From a virus (Duplodnaviria; Heunggongvirae; Uroviricota; Caudoviricetes), in the IMG/VR virus record IMGVR_UViG_3300012347_000482, positions 117,051-145,656 of that record: 28,606 nt of DNA. The stretch is one strand, 5' to 3'. A program made the position numbers and the translations under genes. The notes below the pieces were generated by a model. The model ran no database searches, had not been told where the DNA came from, and worked only from the letters and a program-made list of their open reading frames with translations. Each line of letters begins with the position of its first letter. Within the stretch, counting starts at the first letter, position 1. Positions 5,093 through 28,606 of the stretch are shown here, in pieces.

Positions 5093-6487
5093 ATGACCCC
5101 TGAACAAAACACTATAATAGTTAACGAATTACCATTAATACAAACATGCCCCAACTTTCTGTCAACAGATGAATGCAGCGAGCTTATTGAGTATTCAAAG
5201 GGTAAACTAGAGCAAGGCGAAGTAGTCGATGGTATAACTGGTGAATCCGTAGTCAACATTGACTACCGATCTGCATTTACTTGCGCACTCAGTAAGTCAT
5301 CAGAAATTAGTAAAAAGATATTTGACAAAGTAGAAAAATTTACAAATATAAGCTCGTTGCAATACGAAATTGCAAGTATTACACATTATGCAGTGGGTCA
5401 ACAATTTAAATTGCATCCAGACTATCTCAATCCACGAGATACACATGATAGCAAATCTATATTGCAATACGGCGGAAATCGTATCGGAACTATAATTATC
5501 TATCTTAATGAAGTAGAAAAAGGTGGAGAGACGTTATTTCCTTGGATAGGGCAATTTATTATTCCGAAAACTGGTAAGTTGGTGCATTTTAAGTACAATT
5601 ATTCTAACGCAGAACTAAACATTCGAACAGAGCACGCGAGTATGCCTGTATTAGAGGGAGAAAAGTATATTCTAACTATTTGGTTTAGAGAACAACCGGT
5701 ATCTAATATTGTCGAACATCCTTTAACATTTGTTGCCGAAGAAGCAATACGGACTAACTTAGTCGATACTAAATTTGAAATTAAGTGCGGTATTGCCGAG
5801 GATCAACAAATATTGTCAGTTGAGTTGCCTGCGAACAACGATCCTGCAAATGTTATATTGGTTCCATTTACTGGAGGGATGGATTCGTCATTATTGTTAT
5901 ATTTGATAGGTGCATTAAATAATCAGCAGTCAATACCGTATCATATTAGACCAATTTGCATTTATCTAATAGAAGCTGATGGTACACATAGTAATTTAGA
6001 AGATTACCAGGGCGTTATCGATATGTATGAATTGATTAAAAATAAAATCGGAGGCAACATTTCGTCATTGATGTTTGAACCTGGTAGATCAATACGACAC
6101 GGCATCCTTTCATATAAAGACGACAATAACCCGAGACACACAAAAACTCATAAATTTTTAAATAGAATGTATGTTTACAGTGCAGAAAATGCAATCCCGA
6201 ACGAAGATGATCCTCGATGGAAAAATGTTGGCTGGAGCCGAACGAAATCTACTATAGATTTCTGGAGACAGCCGTTTTTTAATCTTCAAAAATATCATAT
6301 TGTCGATGCCATGTTGCAATTAGGGCTAACTGATATAATAGAACATACTAGAAAGTGCCAGCATAATCATCCAACACTAGATCATGTTTGTAAATACATG
6401 CTATGTAATGAAAGACGATGGGCTTTTACTAAATTACAAAGAGAAGAAATTGGTAATAAATACTTTATAAACAAAGGAACACAATAA
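5093..6487 (+). CDS. Prolyl-4-hydroxylase-type 2OG-Fe(II) oxygenase fused to a QueC-like PP-loop domain, copy 1
   Basis: N-half: LHPD (HxD), RIGTIIIYLNEVEKGGETLFP, HASMPVLEGEKYILTIW. C-half: VPFTGGMDSS PP-loop and KCQHNH...C-KYML-CNERRWAF Cys cluster. Confidence 0.85.
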   Translation: MTPEQNTIIVNELPLIQTCPNFLSTDECSELIEYSKGKLEQGEVVDGITGESVVNIDYRSAFTCALSKSSEISKKIFDKVEKFTNISSLQYEIASITHYAVGQQFKLHPDYLNPRDTHDSKSILQYGGNRIGTIIIYLNEVEKGGETLFPWIGQFIIPKTGKLVHFKYNYSNAELNIRTEHASMPVLEGEKYILTIWFREQPVSNIVEHPLTFVAEEAIRTNLVDTKFEIKCGIAEDQQILSVELPANNDPANVILVPFTGGMDSSLLLYLIGALNNQQSIPYHIRPICIYLIEADGTHSNLEDYQGVIDMYELIKNKIGGNISSLMFEPGRSIRHGILSYKDDNNPRHTKTHKFLNRMYVYSAENAIPNEDDPRWKNVGWSRTKSTIDFWRQPFFNLQKYHIVDAMLQLGLTDIIEHTRKCQHNHPTLDHVCKYMLCNERRWAFTKLQREEIGNKYFINKGTQ

Positions 6488-6829: not shown

Positions 6830-8245
6830 ATGAACAATTACAACATTGAAACTTTGCAAGAACTCCCACTATTACAAGTAGTTAAACAATTCTTAAGCCC
6901 TGCCGAGTGCAAAGAAATTATAGAGTATAGTCAAGGTCGACTAGTTCCGAGTGAAGTTATAAGATACGAAGACGGACAACAAGTTGTAGATTATGCTATT
7001 CGATCTGCATCTACTACGTTTATTCCTACCGATAGCGAGTTAGGTCAACGAGTATTTGAAAAAGTTAGCAATTACTTAAATATCAGTAGTTCAAGATTCG
7101 AACGAATCGCAGTAACCCATTATTCGACAGGTCAAGAATTTAAACTGCATCCTGACTATTTTGCAACAGATAACAGTATCACAGGCCCTAATTCATCTGC
7201 AGAACGATGTAAATTTGGTGGTAATAGAATTTCTACTGTTATTGTGTATTTAAATACTGTAGAAGAAGGTGGCGAAACGCATTTTCCTTGGCTTGGAAAA
7301 TTTATAAAACCCGAACAAGGCGATTTAGTATTTTTTAAATACGACTATGACGATCCAGAATTAAATGTTAGAACAAATCATGCTAGCGTGCCAGTAATTG
7401 CCGGTGAAAAGTACATATTTACAATATGGATAAGAGAAACTACCATAGATCAAGAGTGTCTTGCATATAAAAACTTTACTGCAGAATCTGAATATTTAGA
7501 AAATTTAAAATCTGGAGAGTACGAACTTGAGTGCGGCCCAGCATATGATCGGCAACTATTAAAAGTAAATTTGCCAGCAAATACTGACCCGTGCAATACA
7601 ATTGTTGTACCGTATACCGGAGGAATGGACTCTTCATTAGTATTATATTTGTTAGGCGCCCTTAATAACCGACAAGTAATCCCGTATCACATTAAACCAA
7701 TATGTATATTTGAGGGGGATATGGAAAACTGGAATCCACTAGAAGATCACAGTAATGTCGAAAACATGGTTGAATTAATTCAACGTAAAATTGGCGGGAA
7801 TATTCGTCGCCCTAGTTTTATCCCGATGGAGCCAGGTACCAAGATGACTGATGCTATATTGGGATTTTATAGAAAAAATACCGCAGATCTTATACTAAAT
7901 AAATCGTTTAGATTTTTTAACCCAACATTAATTTATAGCGGAGAAAATGCATTGCCTACTGAAGACGATCATCGATGGAAGGACGTGCCTTGGTCTAGAA
8001 CACGATCGCATTCGCTAATTTGGATACAGCCGTTATTTAATTTAAAGAAATATCATATCCTTGATGCAATTATGCAATTGGGATTAGAAGATATATTAGA
8101 ACATACTTCAAAATGCCGTCATAATCACTTAAGTCTTGACGAGATTTGTCATTATATATTATGCAACGAAAGAAGATGGGCATTTACTAAATTAGGGTTA
8201 AGTGAGTTAGGTAATAAATACTTTATAAACAAAGGAGAAATATAA
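6830..8245 (+). CDS. Prolyl-4-hydroxylase-type 2OG-Fe(II) oxygenase fused to a QueC-like PP-loop domain, copy 2
   Basis: Paralog of 5093-6487: LHPD, YLNTVEEGGETHFP, HASVPVIAGEKY, VPYTGGMDSS, KCRHNH...C-HYIL-CNERRWAF. Confidence 0.85.
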   Translation: MNNYNIETLQELPLLQVVKQFLSPAECKEIIEYSQGRLVPSEVIRYEDGQQVVDYAIRSASTTFIPTDSELGQRVFEKVSNYLNISSSRFERIAVTHYSTGQEFKLHPDYFATDNSITGPNSSAERCKFGGNRISTVIVYLNTVEEGGETHFPWLGKFIKPEQGDLVFFKYDYDDPELNVRTNHASVPVIAGEKYIFTIWIRETTIDQECLAYKNFTAESEYLENLKSGEYELECGPAYDRQLLKVNLPANTDPCNTIVVPYTGGMDSSLVLYLLGALNNRQVIPYHIKPICIFEGDMENWNPLEDHSNVENMVELIQRKIGGNIRRPSFIPMEPGTKMTDAILGFYRKNTADLILNKSFRFFNPTLIYSGENALPTEDDHRWKDVPWSRTRSHSLIWIQPLFNLKKYHILDAIMQLGLEDILEHTSKCRHNHLSLDEICHYILCNERRWAFTKLGLSELGNKYFINKGEI

Positions 8246-12410: not shown

Positions 12411-14288
12411 ATGTCAAAGATCATCGGTATTGATTTAGGTACTACCAATTCCTGCGTTGCTGTTATTGAAAACGGCGTTCCAAAAATTATCGAAAATAGC
12501 GAAGGTGCTCGTACTACACCAAGCATCGTTGCATACACAAATGACGAAATTCTAGTCGGTGCTAGTGCTAAGCGTCAAGCTGTAACAAATCCCAAAAATA
12601 CAATTTATGCTGCTAAGCGATTGATCGGTCGCAAGTTTAAAGAAGATGCTGTACAAAAAGACATCGGATTAATGCCGTATGTAATTACGGAATCTTCAAA
12701 TGGTGATGCTTGGATTAAAGCATCTGATCGAGAGTTAGCTCCCCCTCAAGTATCTGCAGAAGTTCTTCGCAAAATGAAAAAAACTGCTGAAGATTATTTA
12801 GGAGAAGAAGTAACTCAAGCAGTAATTACAGTACCGGCATATTTTAATGATAGCCAAAGACAAGCTACTAAAGATGCAGGTAAAATTGCAGGGTTAGAAG
12901 TACTGCGAATTATTAATGAACCAACAGCAGCAGCATTGGCTTATGGTGTTGATAAACAAGACAAAGCAGATCGTAAAATTGCAGTATACGACTTAGGTGG
13001 AGGTACCTTTGACGTTAGCATTATTGAAATTGCAAATGTCGACGGTGAGAAGCAAATCGAAGTACTTTCAACTAACGGTGATACATTTTTAGGCGGTGAA
13101 GACTTTGATCAACGCATTATGGATTTCTTAGTTGAAGAATTCAAGAAAGATAACGGCATTGACTTAACTAAAGACGGACTAGCGTTGCAACGATTAAAAG
13201 ATTCTGCAGAAAAAGCAAAGATTGAATTATCAAGCTCTGCTCAAACAGAAGTTAATCTACCGTATATTACTGCTGATGCAAGCGGTCCTAAACATTTAGT
13301 AGTTAAATTAACTCGAAGCAAACTAGAAAGCTTAGTAGACGAACTTGTAAGTCGCAGTATTGCTCCTTGTAAAACTGCAATGAAAGATGCCGGAGTTACT
13401 GCTAATGATATCGACGAAGTTATCTTAGTAGGCGGCATGACTCGTATGCCTAAAGTTCAAGAAGCCGTTGAAAAATTATTTGGTAAAGCACCACGTAAAG
13501 ATGTTAATCCAGACGAAGCAGTAGCTGCTGGTGCTGCAGTTCAAGGTGCTGTACTAGGTGGTGATCGTAAAGATGTGTTATTGTTAGACGTAACTCCGTT
13601 AAGTTTAGGTATCGAAACATTAGGTGGAGTAATGACTAAGCTAATTCAGAAAAACACAACTATTCCATCTAAAGCTAGCCAAACATTTAGTACTGCTGAA
13701 GACAATCAACCTGCTGTAACTATTAAAGCATTCCAAGGCGAGCGTGAGTTAGTTCAACATAATAAATTATTAGGTGAGTTTAATTTAGAAGGAATTGCTC
13801 CTGCTCGCCGAGGACAGCCGCAAATCGAAGTCACATTTGATATTGATGCAAACGGTATTATGCATATTTCTGCCAAAGATAAAACTACTGGTAAGGAAAA
13901 TAAAATTACTATTAAGAGTAATAGCGGCTTAACTGATGCCGAGATTCAAACTATGATTCGCGAAGCTGAAGAAAATGCAGAAGCTGATAAGAAAGCTCGT
14001 TCATTAATTGATGCTCGTAATTCAGCAGAAGCACAACTGCACGAAGTTCGTAAAGATATTGCCGAGTATGGCAATCAATTATCAGTTAGCGAAAAAGCAG
14101 AATTAGACGAAGTGATTGCATCTGTTGAAGAAGTTGTTAAGGGCGACGATGCTGACAAAATCACCGAAGCTCTAAATAAAGTATATCCAGCAATGGCTGT
14201 ATTATTAGAGAAAAAGCAAGCTGCTGAACAAGCAAATCAGACGACTGATAATGTAGTTGACGCAGAAGTTAAAGATTCTACTAGTTAA
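12411..14288 (+). CDS. dnaK: Hsp70 chaperone DnaK
   Basis: [52 protein letters not shown], terminal VVDAE; Betaproteobacteria-like [13 protein letters not shown]. Confidence 0.98.
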
Positions 14289-27371: not shown

Positions 27372-27617
27372 ATGTCAGTTATTGATTTTAGTAATAAATT
27401 AAAAGAAAAACAAATGTTAGAAGAACACAAAGCTGCTCTACTAGCAATTGTAGAGTCGTTAAAAGCAGGTGTCGAAGACGGCACTATTAAAGAATTTGTA
27501 GGTGTAAGTATCGACGATGACGGTGAACTTAAACTGTATGTTGGTGCAATGGATTTACCAGGCGGTGTTGGACTATTTGAAATTGGTAAAACACTATTGA
27601 TTCAAGATCAGCTGTAA
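27372..27617 (+). CDS. Hypothetical protein
   Basis: 81 aa; AAGGA RBS. Confidence 0.7.
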   Translation: MSVIDFSNKLKEKQMLEEHKAALLAIVESLKAGVEDGTIKEFVGVSIDDDGELKLYVGAMDLPGGVGLFEIGKTLLIQDQL

Positions 27618-27655
27618 AACAGTCAAAATAACCACATTATAGTGCATTATTTTAG

Positions 27656-27684
27656 TTGACACATAAATAAAACTATATTATAAT
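27656..27684 (+). promoter_or_regulatory. Sigma70-type promoter P1 upstream of the tRNA cluster
   Basis: TTGACA-17 nt-TATAAT. Confidence 0.85.
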
Positions 27685-27748
27685 AGTTATACTTTAATGC
27701 AATGTTGCATTGCTAATAAACAAATTTAACCAAATTTGCAATTAGTAC

Positions 27749-27777
27749 TTGACAACATTGCTAAATAAAAGTATACT
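27749..27777 (+). promoter_or_regulatory. Sigma70-type promoter P2 upstream of the tRNA cluster
   Basis: TTGACA-17 nt-TATACT. Confidence 0.8.
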
Positions 27778-27837
27778 TAATACATGTTGTTACATTACAA
27801 AGTTAATAACATGAAAGAGAAAAATAAAAGATTATAA

Positions 27838-27987
27838 ATGAACAGTACGGTTAATTATCAAATTATTAATAATGCAAGCGAACAGACGAGCTCGATGCTC
27901 TCTTATTGGCCGGCGATTAATACGAATGATAATATGCCGGAGAGTAATCATTATAAAATAGGTTTATTAGCGGAGAAGAACAGTTAA
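27838..27987 (+). CDS. Possible 49-aa leader ORF
   Basis: MNSTVNYQIINNASEQTSSMLSYWPAINTNDNMPESNHYKIGLLAEKNS*; weak RBS; lies between the promoters and a terminator. Confidence 0.3.
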   Translation: MNSTVNYQIINNASEQTSSMLSYWPAINTNDNMPESNHYKIGLLAEKNS

Positions 27988-28015
27988 CTATTTAACAGTT
28001 CATATAGAAACTAAT

Positions 28016-28049
28016 AAACCCTAGGATTAAAACCCCGGGGTTTTTCTTT
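28016..28049 (+). terminator. Terminator between the promoters and the tRNAs
   Basis: AAACCCTAGG...CCCCGGGGTTT stem (one mismatch) followed by TTTTTCTTT. Confidence 0.65.
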
Positions 28050-28218
28050 ACTTGCAGTGTTAATAGGGAACGTAGCCCTTGCTAAACACTATAATACATA
28101 GCAAACGGGCGGAACTAAGGATGGAACACTTTATGTAGTGTGAAAAATCTAGTCATAATAAAACAAATTAGTTAAAACATCGTTTGTTTTATTATACACA
28201 TTTGAATAAAGTGTGTTT

Positions 28219-28308
28219 GGAACGGCTGAGCATTGGTGAGCTCAAGAGACTGTAAATCTCCCGCACAACCGTAAGACTGTATAGGTTCAATTCCTATTCG
28301 TTCCACCA
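28219..28308 (+). tRNA. tRNA-Tyr (GTA)
   Basis: Acceptor GGAACGG/TCGTTCC + ACCA, D stem GAGC/GCTC, loop CT-GTA-AA, long variable arm, T arm ATAGG-TTCAATT-CCTAT. Confidence 0.88.
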
Positions 28309-28318
28309 ATTGTATTTT

Positions 28319-28392
28319 GCCCTATTAGTTAAATGGTATAACACCTGTTTTGTAATCAGGTATTGGCAGTTCGATTCTGTCATGGGGCACCA
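28319..28392 (+). tRNA. tRNA-Thr (TGT)
   Basis: Acceptor GCCCTAT/ATGGGGC + ACCA, loop TT-TGT-AA, T arm GGCAG-TTCGATT-CTGTC. Confidence 0.92.
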
Positions 28393-28398
28393 AGTTTA

Positions 28399-28458
28399 AG
28401 AATGCATACAGCAAAAATTAAAATTTCACTATTGGCTGTGAAAAGCAAACTGCATTCT
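28399..28458 (+). ncRNA. Armless tRNA-like repeat element 1
   Basis: 7-bp outer stem AGAATGC/GCATTCT, conserved CAGCAA, inner stem TTTCAC/GTGAAA with an 8-nt loop. Confidence 0.55.
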
Positions 28459-28467
28459 GTTTTATTT

Positions 28468-28542
28468 GTCTCGTTCATCTAGCGGTAAGGATATTTGACT
28501 TTCTATCAGATTACACCGGTTCGAATCCGGTACGAGACTCCA
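28468..28542 (+). tRNA. tRNA-Glu (TTC)
   Basis: Acceptor GTCTCGT/ACGAGAC + TCCA, loop CT-TTC-TA, T arm ACCGG-TTCGAAT-CCGGT. Confidence 0.9.
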
Positions 28543-28547
28543 GTTTA

Positions 28548-28602
28548 AGGATGCGTTCAGCAACTCTTAAAATTCAACTTTTAATTGAAAAATAAGCATC
28601 CT
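28548..28602 (+). ncRNA. Armless tRNA-like repeat element 2 with a Lys(UUU)-like anticodon stem-loop
   Basis: 7-bp outer stem AGGATGC/GCATCCT, conserved CAGCAA, inner TTCAA-CT-TTT-AA-TTGAA. Confidence 0.6.
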
Positions 28603-28606
28603 GTTT

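Follow-up and report, generated by a model that had tools for sequence, protein, structure and literature searches.

Small RNA elements interleaved with phage tRNA genes: a family of candidate Y-RNA-like partners for a predicted Ro60 homologue

Introduction

What are the two short repeats that are interleaved with the transfer RNA (tRNA) genes at the very end of the IMG/VR virus record IMGVR_UViG_3300012347_000482? The stretch analysed here, called the window, comprises the last 28,606 nucleotides of this 145,656-bp record, the completeness of which is estimated at 41%. The last 390 bases of the window hold three plus-strand tRNA genes and two related elements, and the record stops at position 28606, within the array and in the 3' flank of the second element. 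An initial annotation, made from the sequence alone, described the elements as armless tRNA-like repeats and suggested that they were mini-tRNA decoys or processing signals of the tRNA operon; it proposed a covariance model and searches of phage genomes and of Rfam as a check. Here, the two elements are identified as belonging to a large family of small RNAs, uncatalogued so far, that phages have among their tRNA genes, and they are probably short members of a virus-encoded Y-RNA-like family that partners a divergent branch of the Ro60 proteins. Y RNAs are known to be encoded beside Ro60 genes in bacteria and phages (PMC4201824; PMC12135203), as in phage phiLo with its Yrl1 and Yrl2 (PMC12135203).

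Results

Two related elements in the tRNA array of the window

Both copies share one layout: GUUUAAG(A/G)AUGC and three bases precede CAGCAA, after which come a hairpin, a stretch rich in A and GCAU(U/C)CUGUUU (Table 1). Reading of the sequence bore out most of what had been described: the repeats follow tRNA-Thr and tRNA-Glu, the 7-bp outer stem carries a compensatory A-T to G-C change between the copies, the inner hairpin (hereafter the payload) has a canonical 5-bp stem and 7-nt loop in copy 2 and an 8-nt loop in copy 1, and neither copy has a D arm, a T arm or a CCA end, the 3' end being CUGUUU. With U33 and a purine at position 37, the arm of copy 2 is of the anticodon type, and that of copy 1 is not. 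A further degenerate copy had been suspected at 28117-28150, yet a search of 27600-28606 with the covariance model described below and with filters off gave nothing above 9.3 bits besides the two copies, and this third copy is thus unsupported.

Because this model, named R1 and built from relatives, assigns high scores to both copies (Table 1), the repeat of the window is not a product of chance. When folded singly, the copies are only marginally better than shuffled sequence (z of -1.0 and -1.9), and structural support thus rests on covariation across the family. At the gathering score, Rfam matched only tRNAs in the window, and neither element was reported by ARAGORN or by the Rfam tRNA model RF00005, even at E values up to 10. 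A nucleotide search of cultured phages with the end of the window returned matches to tRNA-Thr only. Copy 2 is identical to a stretch of another viral contig (L010:3005-3068), where it stands in a different tRNA context.

Table 1. Location of the tRNA genes and elements of the window and of related tandem arrays in giant-virus contigs
Feature	Location	Strand	Evidence or sequence	Remark
tRNA, anticodon GTA	28219..28305	+	Rfam RF00005 42.6 bits; ARAGORN no call	Long variable arm; first gene of the array
tRNA-Thr(UGU)	28319..28392	+	ARAGORN; Rfam 63.5 bits	Encoded CCA; copy 1 begins 1 nt on
Element copy 1	28394..28462	+	R1 62.3 bits (E 4e-14); RF01414 23.4 bits, full model length	
Copy 1, predicted RNA core	~28398-28460	+	AAG to CUGU	~63 nt
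Copy 1, outer stem	28399-28405 with 28452-28458	+	AGAATGC/GCATTCT	7 bp
Copy 1, CAGCAA motif	28409-28414	+		
Copy 1, payload hairpin	28425-28442	+	TTCAC-TATTGGCT-GTGAA	8-nt loop UAUUGGCU
tRNA-Glu(UUC)	28468..28542	+	ARAGORN; Rfam 54.6 bits	Encoded CCA; separates the elements
Element copy 2	28543..28606	+	R1 73.1 bits (E 1e-16); RF01414 27.7 bits, full length	
Copy 2, predicted RNA core	~28547-28605	+	AAG to CUGU	~59 nt
Copy 2, outer stem	28548-28554 with 28597-28603	+	AGGATGC/GCATCCT	7 bp
Copy 2, CAGCAA motif	28558-28563	+		
Copy 2, payload hairpin	28573-28589	+	TTCAA-CTTTTAA-TTGAA	5-bp stem; 7-nt loop, CUUUUAA as RNA
Giant-virus array	L060:13784-14014			Head-to-tail units
Giant-virus array	L153:4585-4836			Head-to-tail units
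Giant-virus array	L154:4516-4675			Head-to-tail units
Giant-virus array	L155:4411-4836			Head-to-tail units
Giant-virus array	L156:3189-3440			Head-to-tail units

A large family among viral tRNA genes

A strict pattern derived from the two window copies was found in 19 viral contigs, each of them a tRNA array, and a looser pattern in at least 120 viral loci. R1 was built from an alignment of 24 distinct copies and gave 163 matches in 80 of these loci. A scan script whose sole requirements were a 6-bp stem starting with G, the motif C[ACG]GCAA and a TG after it returned 312 distinct members among 354 instances, spread over 140 loci. Several features that the script did not enforce were nevertheless conserved: an A precedes the stem, the stem contains GAU, the 3' strand is rich in A, and UGUU follows the stem. 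As a control, 80 loci from prokaryote genomes that matched the loose pattern were searched with R1 and yielded a single weak match; the prokaryote collection is far larger than the viral one, and several hundred chance matches to the loose pattern are expected by our estimate. The match lies in Algoriphagus alkaliphilus DSM 22703 (L192:632-710, 30.3 bits) and is either a prophage copy or chance.

The proposed covariance model and search of phage DNA accordingly led to further copies and to strong covariation. The family has no Rfam match at the gathering score and, the weak Algoriphagus match apart, was not found in the cellular genomes searched; below that score, the two window copies matched RF01414, the Class I RNAs of Dictyostelium, and long members matched YrlA (both described below). 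In complete genomes, the elements cluster in the tRNA region, with three to five in each. Small coding sequences annotated as hypothetical proteins lie over members in Pseudomonas phage Milchi (L142:4658-4786) and Escherichia coli phage phiSUSP1 (L277:7832-8002); these are probably spurious calls.

Conservation of the elements as RNA

The family anatomy consists of A-GGAUnn, nnCAGCAA, a variable payload, an A-rich strand and nnAUCC-UGU. The consensus of the 5' part is AAGGAUnn-nnCAGCAA, in which the CAGCAA bulge is invariant. In a 144-sequence model alignment, 96.4% of the cells are paired, compared with 75% after shuffling and about 40% when the partners are slid, and compensatory double changes occur at 10 of the 12 pairs. 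Pairing reaches 99.9% in the outer stem, where G-U is absent and five of the seven pairs covary; in the inner stems, U-G pairs occur on the tRNA strand only. Elements have the same orientation as nearby tRNAs in 304 cases and the opposite in one. The stem begins 6-7 nt after the upstream tRNA in 121 cases, and the typical end lies 10-11 nt before the next tRNA.

These properties were weighed against a DNA-level origin, in which the repeats would be miniature mobile elements or recombination sites of tRNA cassettes, the stems terminal inverted repeats and the GTTT flanks target duplications. Inverted termini and GTTT flanks are indeed present in the window, the contig breaks at the repeat, and an identical copy resides in a different tRNA context of another contig. 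However, the strand bias relative to the tRNAs, the maintenance of inner hairpins by compensatory changes and the restriction of U-G to one strand speak against such a scheme, the flanks differ among members (uuuuA, uguaua, cagAA) although the features at the RNA level are retained, and no transposase is associated. A DNA repeat is therefore very improbable. The strand bias, the one-stranded U-G pairs and the covariation of the inner stems mark the element as one of the RNA level, which would be made from the tRNA transcript.

A linked gene of the DUF2828/DUF7788 family

Four elements are interspersed with tRNAs in a cultured phage, Pseudomonas phage Milchi, near a gene for an 'RNA-binding protein' that matches DUF2828 and DUF7788. 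PF25043 (DUF7788) was detected in 25 of the 31 viral records that bear elements and in none of the 14 bacterial genomes that served as controls. Each of the five complete genomes in which the model confirmed elements carries the gene, and the gene-less records with an estimated completeness of 92-100% (G012, G016 and G030) also lack model-confirmed elements. Among 45 gene-bearing loci, an element stands directly upstream of the gene on the same strand in 37 and directly downstream in 8; the upstream elements mostly lie 13-45 nt before the start codon, and all of them within about 100 nt. In phiSUSP1 (KT454805.2), an Ounavirinae phage of E. coli, the gene (protein ALH47022.1) stands at the head of the tRNA array, and four family members, with the variant scaffold AAGACCnn...UUACAGCAA...nnGGUCUGG, follow just downstream; the predicted RNAs lie at 84766-84822, 84925-84979, 85381-85449 and 85471-85589, with ends near AAG and CUG(G/U).

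Diverse lineages of the protein were also used as a starting point, independent of the RNA. In one of them (L152), four elements stand directly upstream of the gene. Another (L149) has a minimal member of 45 nt at 2948-2992 (AAGAAUC-UUUACAGCAAC-...-GAUUCUG) that abuts the GAGGAG ribosome-binding site of the gene; an element running into the Shine-Dalgarno sequence in this way would allow leader-like autoregulation. Contigs of giant viruses (nucleocytoplasmic large DNA viruses, NCLDV) contain perfect head-to-tail arrays of 76-83-nt units with the form uguaua-GGAUAC-AU(U)CCAGCAA...GUAUCC-uguaua (Table 1). These arrays adjoin a divergently oriented DUF2828/DUF7788 gene, and an NCLDV major capsid gene is nearby.

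Predicted Ro60 fold of the linked protein

The linked protein has a length of about 470 aa and matches PF11443 and PF25043. An AlphaFold model made with a 50-sequence alignment had a predicted local distance difference test (pLDDT) score of 89.6; the single-sequence model had 38. When the former was compared with the Protein Data Bank (PDB) by Foldseek, the top 12 matches were all full-length Ro60/TROVE structures, from Thermus phage phiLo, Xenopus, human and Deinococcus, with E values down to 5e-8, and they were followed by vWA domains only. Template modelling scores were 0.5-0.62 for most of the 12; Deinococcus Rsr and one of the human Ro60 entries scored lower. A profile search against the PDB also gave TROVE/Ro60 as the top matches, which were weak. 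The MIDAS residues DxSxS...T...D are invariant in the protein alignment. Some UniRef relatives are named TROVE domain-containing, and mycobacteriophage homologues are annotated as 'Ro-like RNA binding protein'. Judged by the structural model, the DUF2828/DUF7788 protein is a divergent Ro60 homologue with an alpha-helical TROVE-like ring and a C-terminal vWA domain that bears the MIDAS. The protein family is very large, with 6,312 clusters when grouped at 50% identity, and 710 records of cultured phages contain it, among them all Felix O1-like coliphages; the protein is also encoded by fungi.

Payloads and the roles they suggest

The members fall into two main length groups, one near 50-60 nt and the other near 110 nt, and a tail extends to 170 nt. 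Among 185 short members with a predicted hairpin, 95 have a 7-nt loop, compared with 9.6% in shuffles, and 68 (37%) fit the anticodon-loop rule Y-U-NNN-R-N, compared with 0.6% of shuffled payloads. The triplets of these 68 loops are led by UUU (30, a count inflated by the T-rich base composition), UGU (12), UCU (9) and GUU (3); most have U34, and 60 end in U. The payload of a short form is thus often an anticodon-arm mimic with the loop C-U-U-N-U-A-A, and near-identical scaffolds vary at loop positions 34-35 alone (UGU, UUU, UCU, GAU, GCU). The arms are A/U-rich and, when compared with the arms of the phage's own tRNAs, are not copies of them. A match of the element triplet to those of neighbouring tRNAs was also considered and rejected, as the triplets disagree. 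Some arms read UUGACUUUUAAUCAA, which we take to be the arm of a gammaproteobacterial-type tRNA-Lys, with the sequence U36-A-A-U-C-A.

Of the initial description, the constant scaffold with a variable anticodon-loop-like module was retained, and the identification as armless or mini-tRNAs was not. A tRNA must have its T arm and elbow to be used by bacterial EF-Tu and ribosomes. Copy 2 and many relatives do possess a canonical 5-bp, 7-nt anticodon-type arm, as functional minimal tRNAs that are charged and used in translation would. Yet CCA and acceptor geometry are lacking, the 3' CUGU is conserved, ARAGORN and the Rfam tRNA model detect nothing, copy 1 and many other members have no anticodon-type loop, the acceptor-like hairpins of long forms are capped by tetraloops, and the same scaffold bears quite different payloads. 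A role as minimal tRNAs is hardly credible.

The same arms could serve as free decoys or sponges, in which the mimics titrate PrrC, PARIS AriB or collateral Cas13 cleavage and the scaffold provides stability only. AriB mainly acts on tRNA-Lys(UUU) and on tRNA-Thr(UGU) (PMC12409363), and the U-N-U bias of the payloads parallels the known targets of PrrC and AriB. The excess of canonical loops over shuffles, the dominance of UUU, UGU and UCU, the variation of otherwise identical scaffolds at positions 34-35, the independence from the phage's own arms and the AriB site U36AAUC|A41 within the UUGACUUUUAAUCAA arms would all suit such a function. On the other hand, stability alone would not need an invariant scaffold (AGGAU, CAGCAA, UGU) tied to one protein gene, and this scaffold also carries loops without anticodon form, as in copy 1, and large unrelated inserts. 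Furthermore, cleavage did not return when the AriB site was put back into a resistant tRNA (PMC12409363), and an isolated arm may go unrecognised. As the arm by itself does not suffice for AriB, a simple role as decoy cannot be taken as given, and we consider it unlikely.

Long forms contain a T arm, a tetraloop-capped acceptor-like hairpin and a D arm, in the order of bacterial YrlA. They match the tRNA-like domain or the full model of Rfam YrlA with up to 48.9 bits (E 1.7e-10, L073:3655-3779). Other payloads are tRNA bodies minus the acceptor end or large folds that match nothing identified. A permuted or split tRNA gene was dropped as an explanation of the long forms, as the hairpin caps are GNRA or UUCA-type and the order of the arms is that of YrlA. 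A self-cleaving ribozyme was likewise dropped; Rfam ribozyme models gave no match, and conservation is limited to one loop strand. Conserved multi-hairpin payloads of 150-170 nt without an Rfam match were observed in L123:389-549, L115:3413-3566, L108:8576-8737 and L134 (a 166-nt member), and a GUGAGUUUCGAUUUCUCAC arm recurs within them.

The elements could also be punctuation, processing or stability signals of the polycistronic tRNA transcript, that is, structured spacers with no role of their own. They begin right after an encoded CCA, keep fixed distances to both neighbouring tRNAs and lie on the tRNA strand, all of which a processing signal would explain. However, most tRNA junctions in element-bearing arrays have no element, members also flank the Ro60-like gene, and the tandem arrays of giant viruses have no tRNAs among the called genes and spans examined, although no tRNA scan of these loci was made. 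The payloads have an elaborate structure that covaries and diversifies, and complete YrlA-like domains are among them. A mere processing signal, as the initial annotation had alternatively suggested, is quite unlikely. The genetic link between the conserved scaffold and the Ro60-like gene points instead to a Y-RNA-type ribonucleoprotein, rather than to a free decoy or a processing signal.

Discussion

A Y-RNA-type particle is the best supported reading of the window elements, because the family combines a terminal stem and conserved bulge with modular payloads that include a YrlA-like domain, because it adjoins a Ro60-type gene, and because phage Ro60-Y RNA pairs have been published. The elements would most likely be co-transcribed with the tRNA array and freed as the flanking tRNAs are processed, as their position and strand suggest. 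Their constant module, composed of the Watson-Crick stem A-GGAUnn/nnAUCC-UGU, the single-stranded nnCAGCAA bulge and the A-rich opposite strand, is the putative binding site of the roughly 470-aa Ro60 homologue, whose gene normally lies beside or within the tRNA array concerned. The payload would mimic part of a tRNA. In short forms such as copy 2 this may be an anticodon arm, mostly with U34-N35-U36 and hence Lys-, Thr- or Arg(UCU)-like, and in long forms the T arm, capped acceptor hairpin and D arm as in bacterial YrlA. The window copies appear to be pared-down versions with one hairpin as their effector module; in copy 2, this hairpin would be the anticodon-arm mimic. By analogy with Ro60 and its Y RNAs, the payload might tether the protein to a tRNA-recognising factor, gate the protein or display a mimic to such a factor, and the purpose may be tRNA surveillance or counter-defence during infection.

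Several points weigh against a Y-RNA-like family with a Ro60 partner. The family has CAGCAA with AGGAU...AUCCUGU and lacks the GNCGAA/CGAA of known Y RNAs. No member reaches the gathering score of 69 of the YrlA model RF02553, the best being 48.9 bits, and the window gave no match to it. The record of the window itself, a 41%-complete fragment, has no DUF2828/DUF7788 gene, and no element adjoins the gene in one lineage of the protein-first set (L151). The records used for co-occurrence were picked via the RNA, with a small internal control and without matched tRNA-rich phages free of the RNA. Pfam TROVE (PF05731) matches nothing in the record of the window or in 30 other records; this first argued against a link with Ro60 and was overturned by the Ro60 fold of the protein model. 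Transcription, processing, protein binding and the biological role of the members are inferred, and Bas63 gp130, a precedent considered below, was equated with the DUF2828/DUF7788 family from taxonomy and gene position.

If correct, the assignment supplies RNA partners for a very common and unstudied phage protein, one homologue of which is reported to counter a defence system. It also adds a large family of structured RNAs to phage tRNA arrays, which are usually read as tRNAs plus junk or tiny open reading frames (ORFs). The diversifying anticodon-arm payloads suggest a programmable display of tRNA mimics, which bears on the arms race around tRNA-cleaving immunity.

Other features of the window and of related contigs

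Upstream of a small ORF and of the tRNA array, two near-perfect sigma-70 consensus promoters with 17-nt spacers were observed on the plus strand at 27656-27684 and 27749-27777, with 12/12 and 11/12 matches. A group I intron, tmRNA genes and a tRNA with an insertion of about 45 nt were found in or near arrays of related phages (L016:8204-8452; L005:284-761; L018:926-1340; L001:698-815). Elsewhere in the window, the plus strand encodes a full-length DnaK/Hsp70 homologue (12411-14288) with about 66% identity (tblastn) to DnaK-type sequences of records named as Pseudomonas and Acinetobacter phages, and two adjacent paralogous ORFs of about 465 aa (5093-6487 and 6830-8245), the N-termini of which match 2OG-Fe(II) oxygenase and DNA endonuclease PHROGs. 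At the start of the contig, outside the window, the minus strand of G000:C1:1-1300 encodes a protein of many short tandem repeats that appears MORN-like by eye.

Comparison with known systems

As a kind, the elements are best filed as Y RNAs; new here are the scaffold, the branch of Ro60 and the mini-forms with anticodon-arm payloads interleaved with tRNAs. As in YrlA (RF02553), the 5' and 3' ends of the phage RNAs form a terminal stem beside a conserved bulge, and the family as a whole is modular and encoded beside a Ro60-type gene. The long forms share with YrlA the T arm, the closed acceptor-like hairpin and the D arm, whereas both window copies have a single hairpin. In known Y RNAs, Ro60 binds the motif GNCGAAN0-1G, or CGAA, on the 5' strand (PMC4201824; PMC12135203). 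Unlike YrlA, the partner belongs to the DUF2828/DUF7788 branch that is invisible to Pfam TROVE, there are several copies per genome, interleaved with tRNAs, and most members measure about 60 nt, with a single hairpin, often one that mimics an anticodon arm, in place of the tRNA-like domain.

A precedent for a function in counter-defence is Bas63 gp130, a Ro60-like protein that is encoded directly upstream of the tRNAs of its phage and is reported to act against the Ppl defence; the authors of that preprint surmised that Y RNAs, as yet unidentified, are present among the tRNAs (bioRxiv 10.1101/2024.10.10.617714). The tRNA-Lys, tRNA-Thr and tRNA-Asn variants of phage T5 neutralise PARIS AriB (PMC11464382; PMC12409363). 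Like these, the elements lie in phage tRNA arrays, have arms of the Lys(UUU) and Thr(UGU) type and plausibly relate to host attack on tRNAs. The T5 tRNAs, in contrast, are complete, functional and cleavage-resistant and replace the cut host tRNAs, whereas the elements are not tRNAs and cannot decode, and several of them keep the sensitive UAAUC(A).

At relaxed thresholds, RF01414 was the only non-tRNA Rfam family that matched both window copies, and nine further members, including one from an E. coli phage, also matched the full model; all scores lie between 23.4 and 29.1 bits over model positions 1-56 of 56 and below the gathering score of 41.5. Class I RNAs have lengths of about 42-65 nt and a 6-bp terminal stem with a 5' G paired to the C of the 3' CUGU (PMC7919456). 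The short phage forms are likewise some 60 nt long, open with AAG, close with CUGU, have a terminal stem of 6 bp and vary in the remaining part, and the cores in the window read AAG-GAUGC...GCAUC-CUGU. In both groups, a motif ending in ACAGCAA directly follows the 5' stem strand: the 11-nt motif of Class I RNAs (...UUACAGCAA) corresponds to AUACAGCAA and GUUCAGCAA in the window, to UAACAGCAA in the family and to UUUACAGCAA in the E. coli phage and minimal forms. As far as sequence and predicted folding can tell, the short forms share every published sequence and structure hallmark of Class I RNAs. The settings differ, as Class I RNAs are nuclear genes with a DUSE promoter about 60 nt upstream, whereas the phage elements are viral, occur in tRNA operons or by a Ro60-like gene and have no DUSE but a tRNA that ends 6-7 nt upstream. 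Class I RNAs are moreover reported as exclusive to dictyostelids and bound by the RRM protein Rnp1A (PMC7919456).

Homology between the viral elements and the Class I RNAs is accordingly offered as a lead. It is possible, though doubtful, that both form one ancient class, which would serve the DUF2828/DUF7788 branch of Ro60 in phages, giant viruses and eukaryotes as its cognate 'Y RNAs' and in which the short phage forms would use exchangeable U-N-U anticodon-arm mimics to aim the particle at tRNA-targeting defences or to shield tRNAs from them. With the shared hallmarks and the giant-virus arrays beside the same gene, the partner and function of the Class I RNAs become directly testable.

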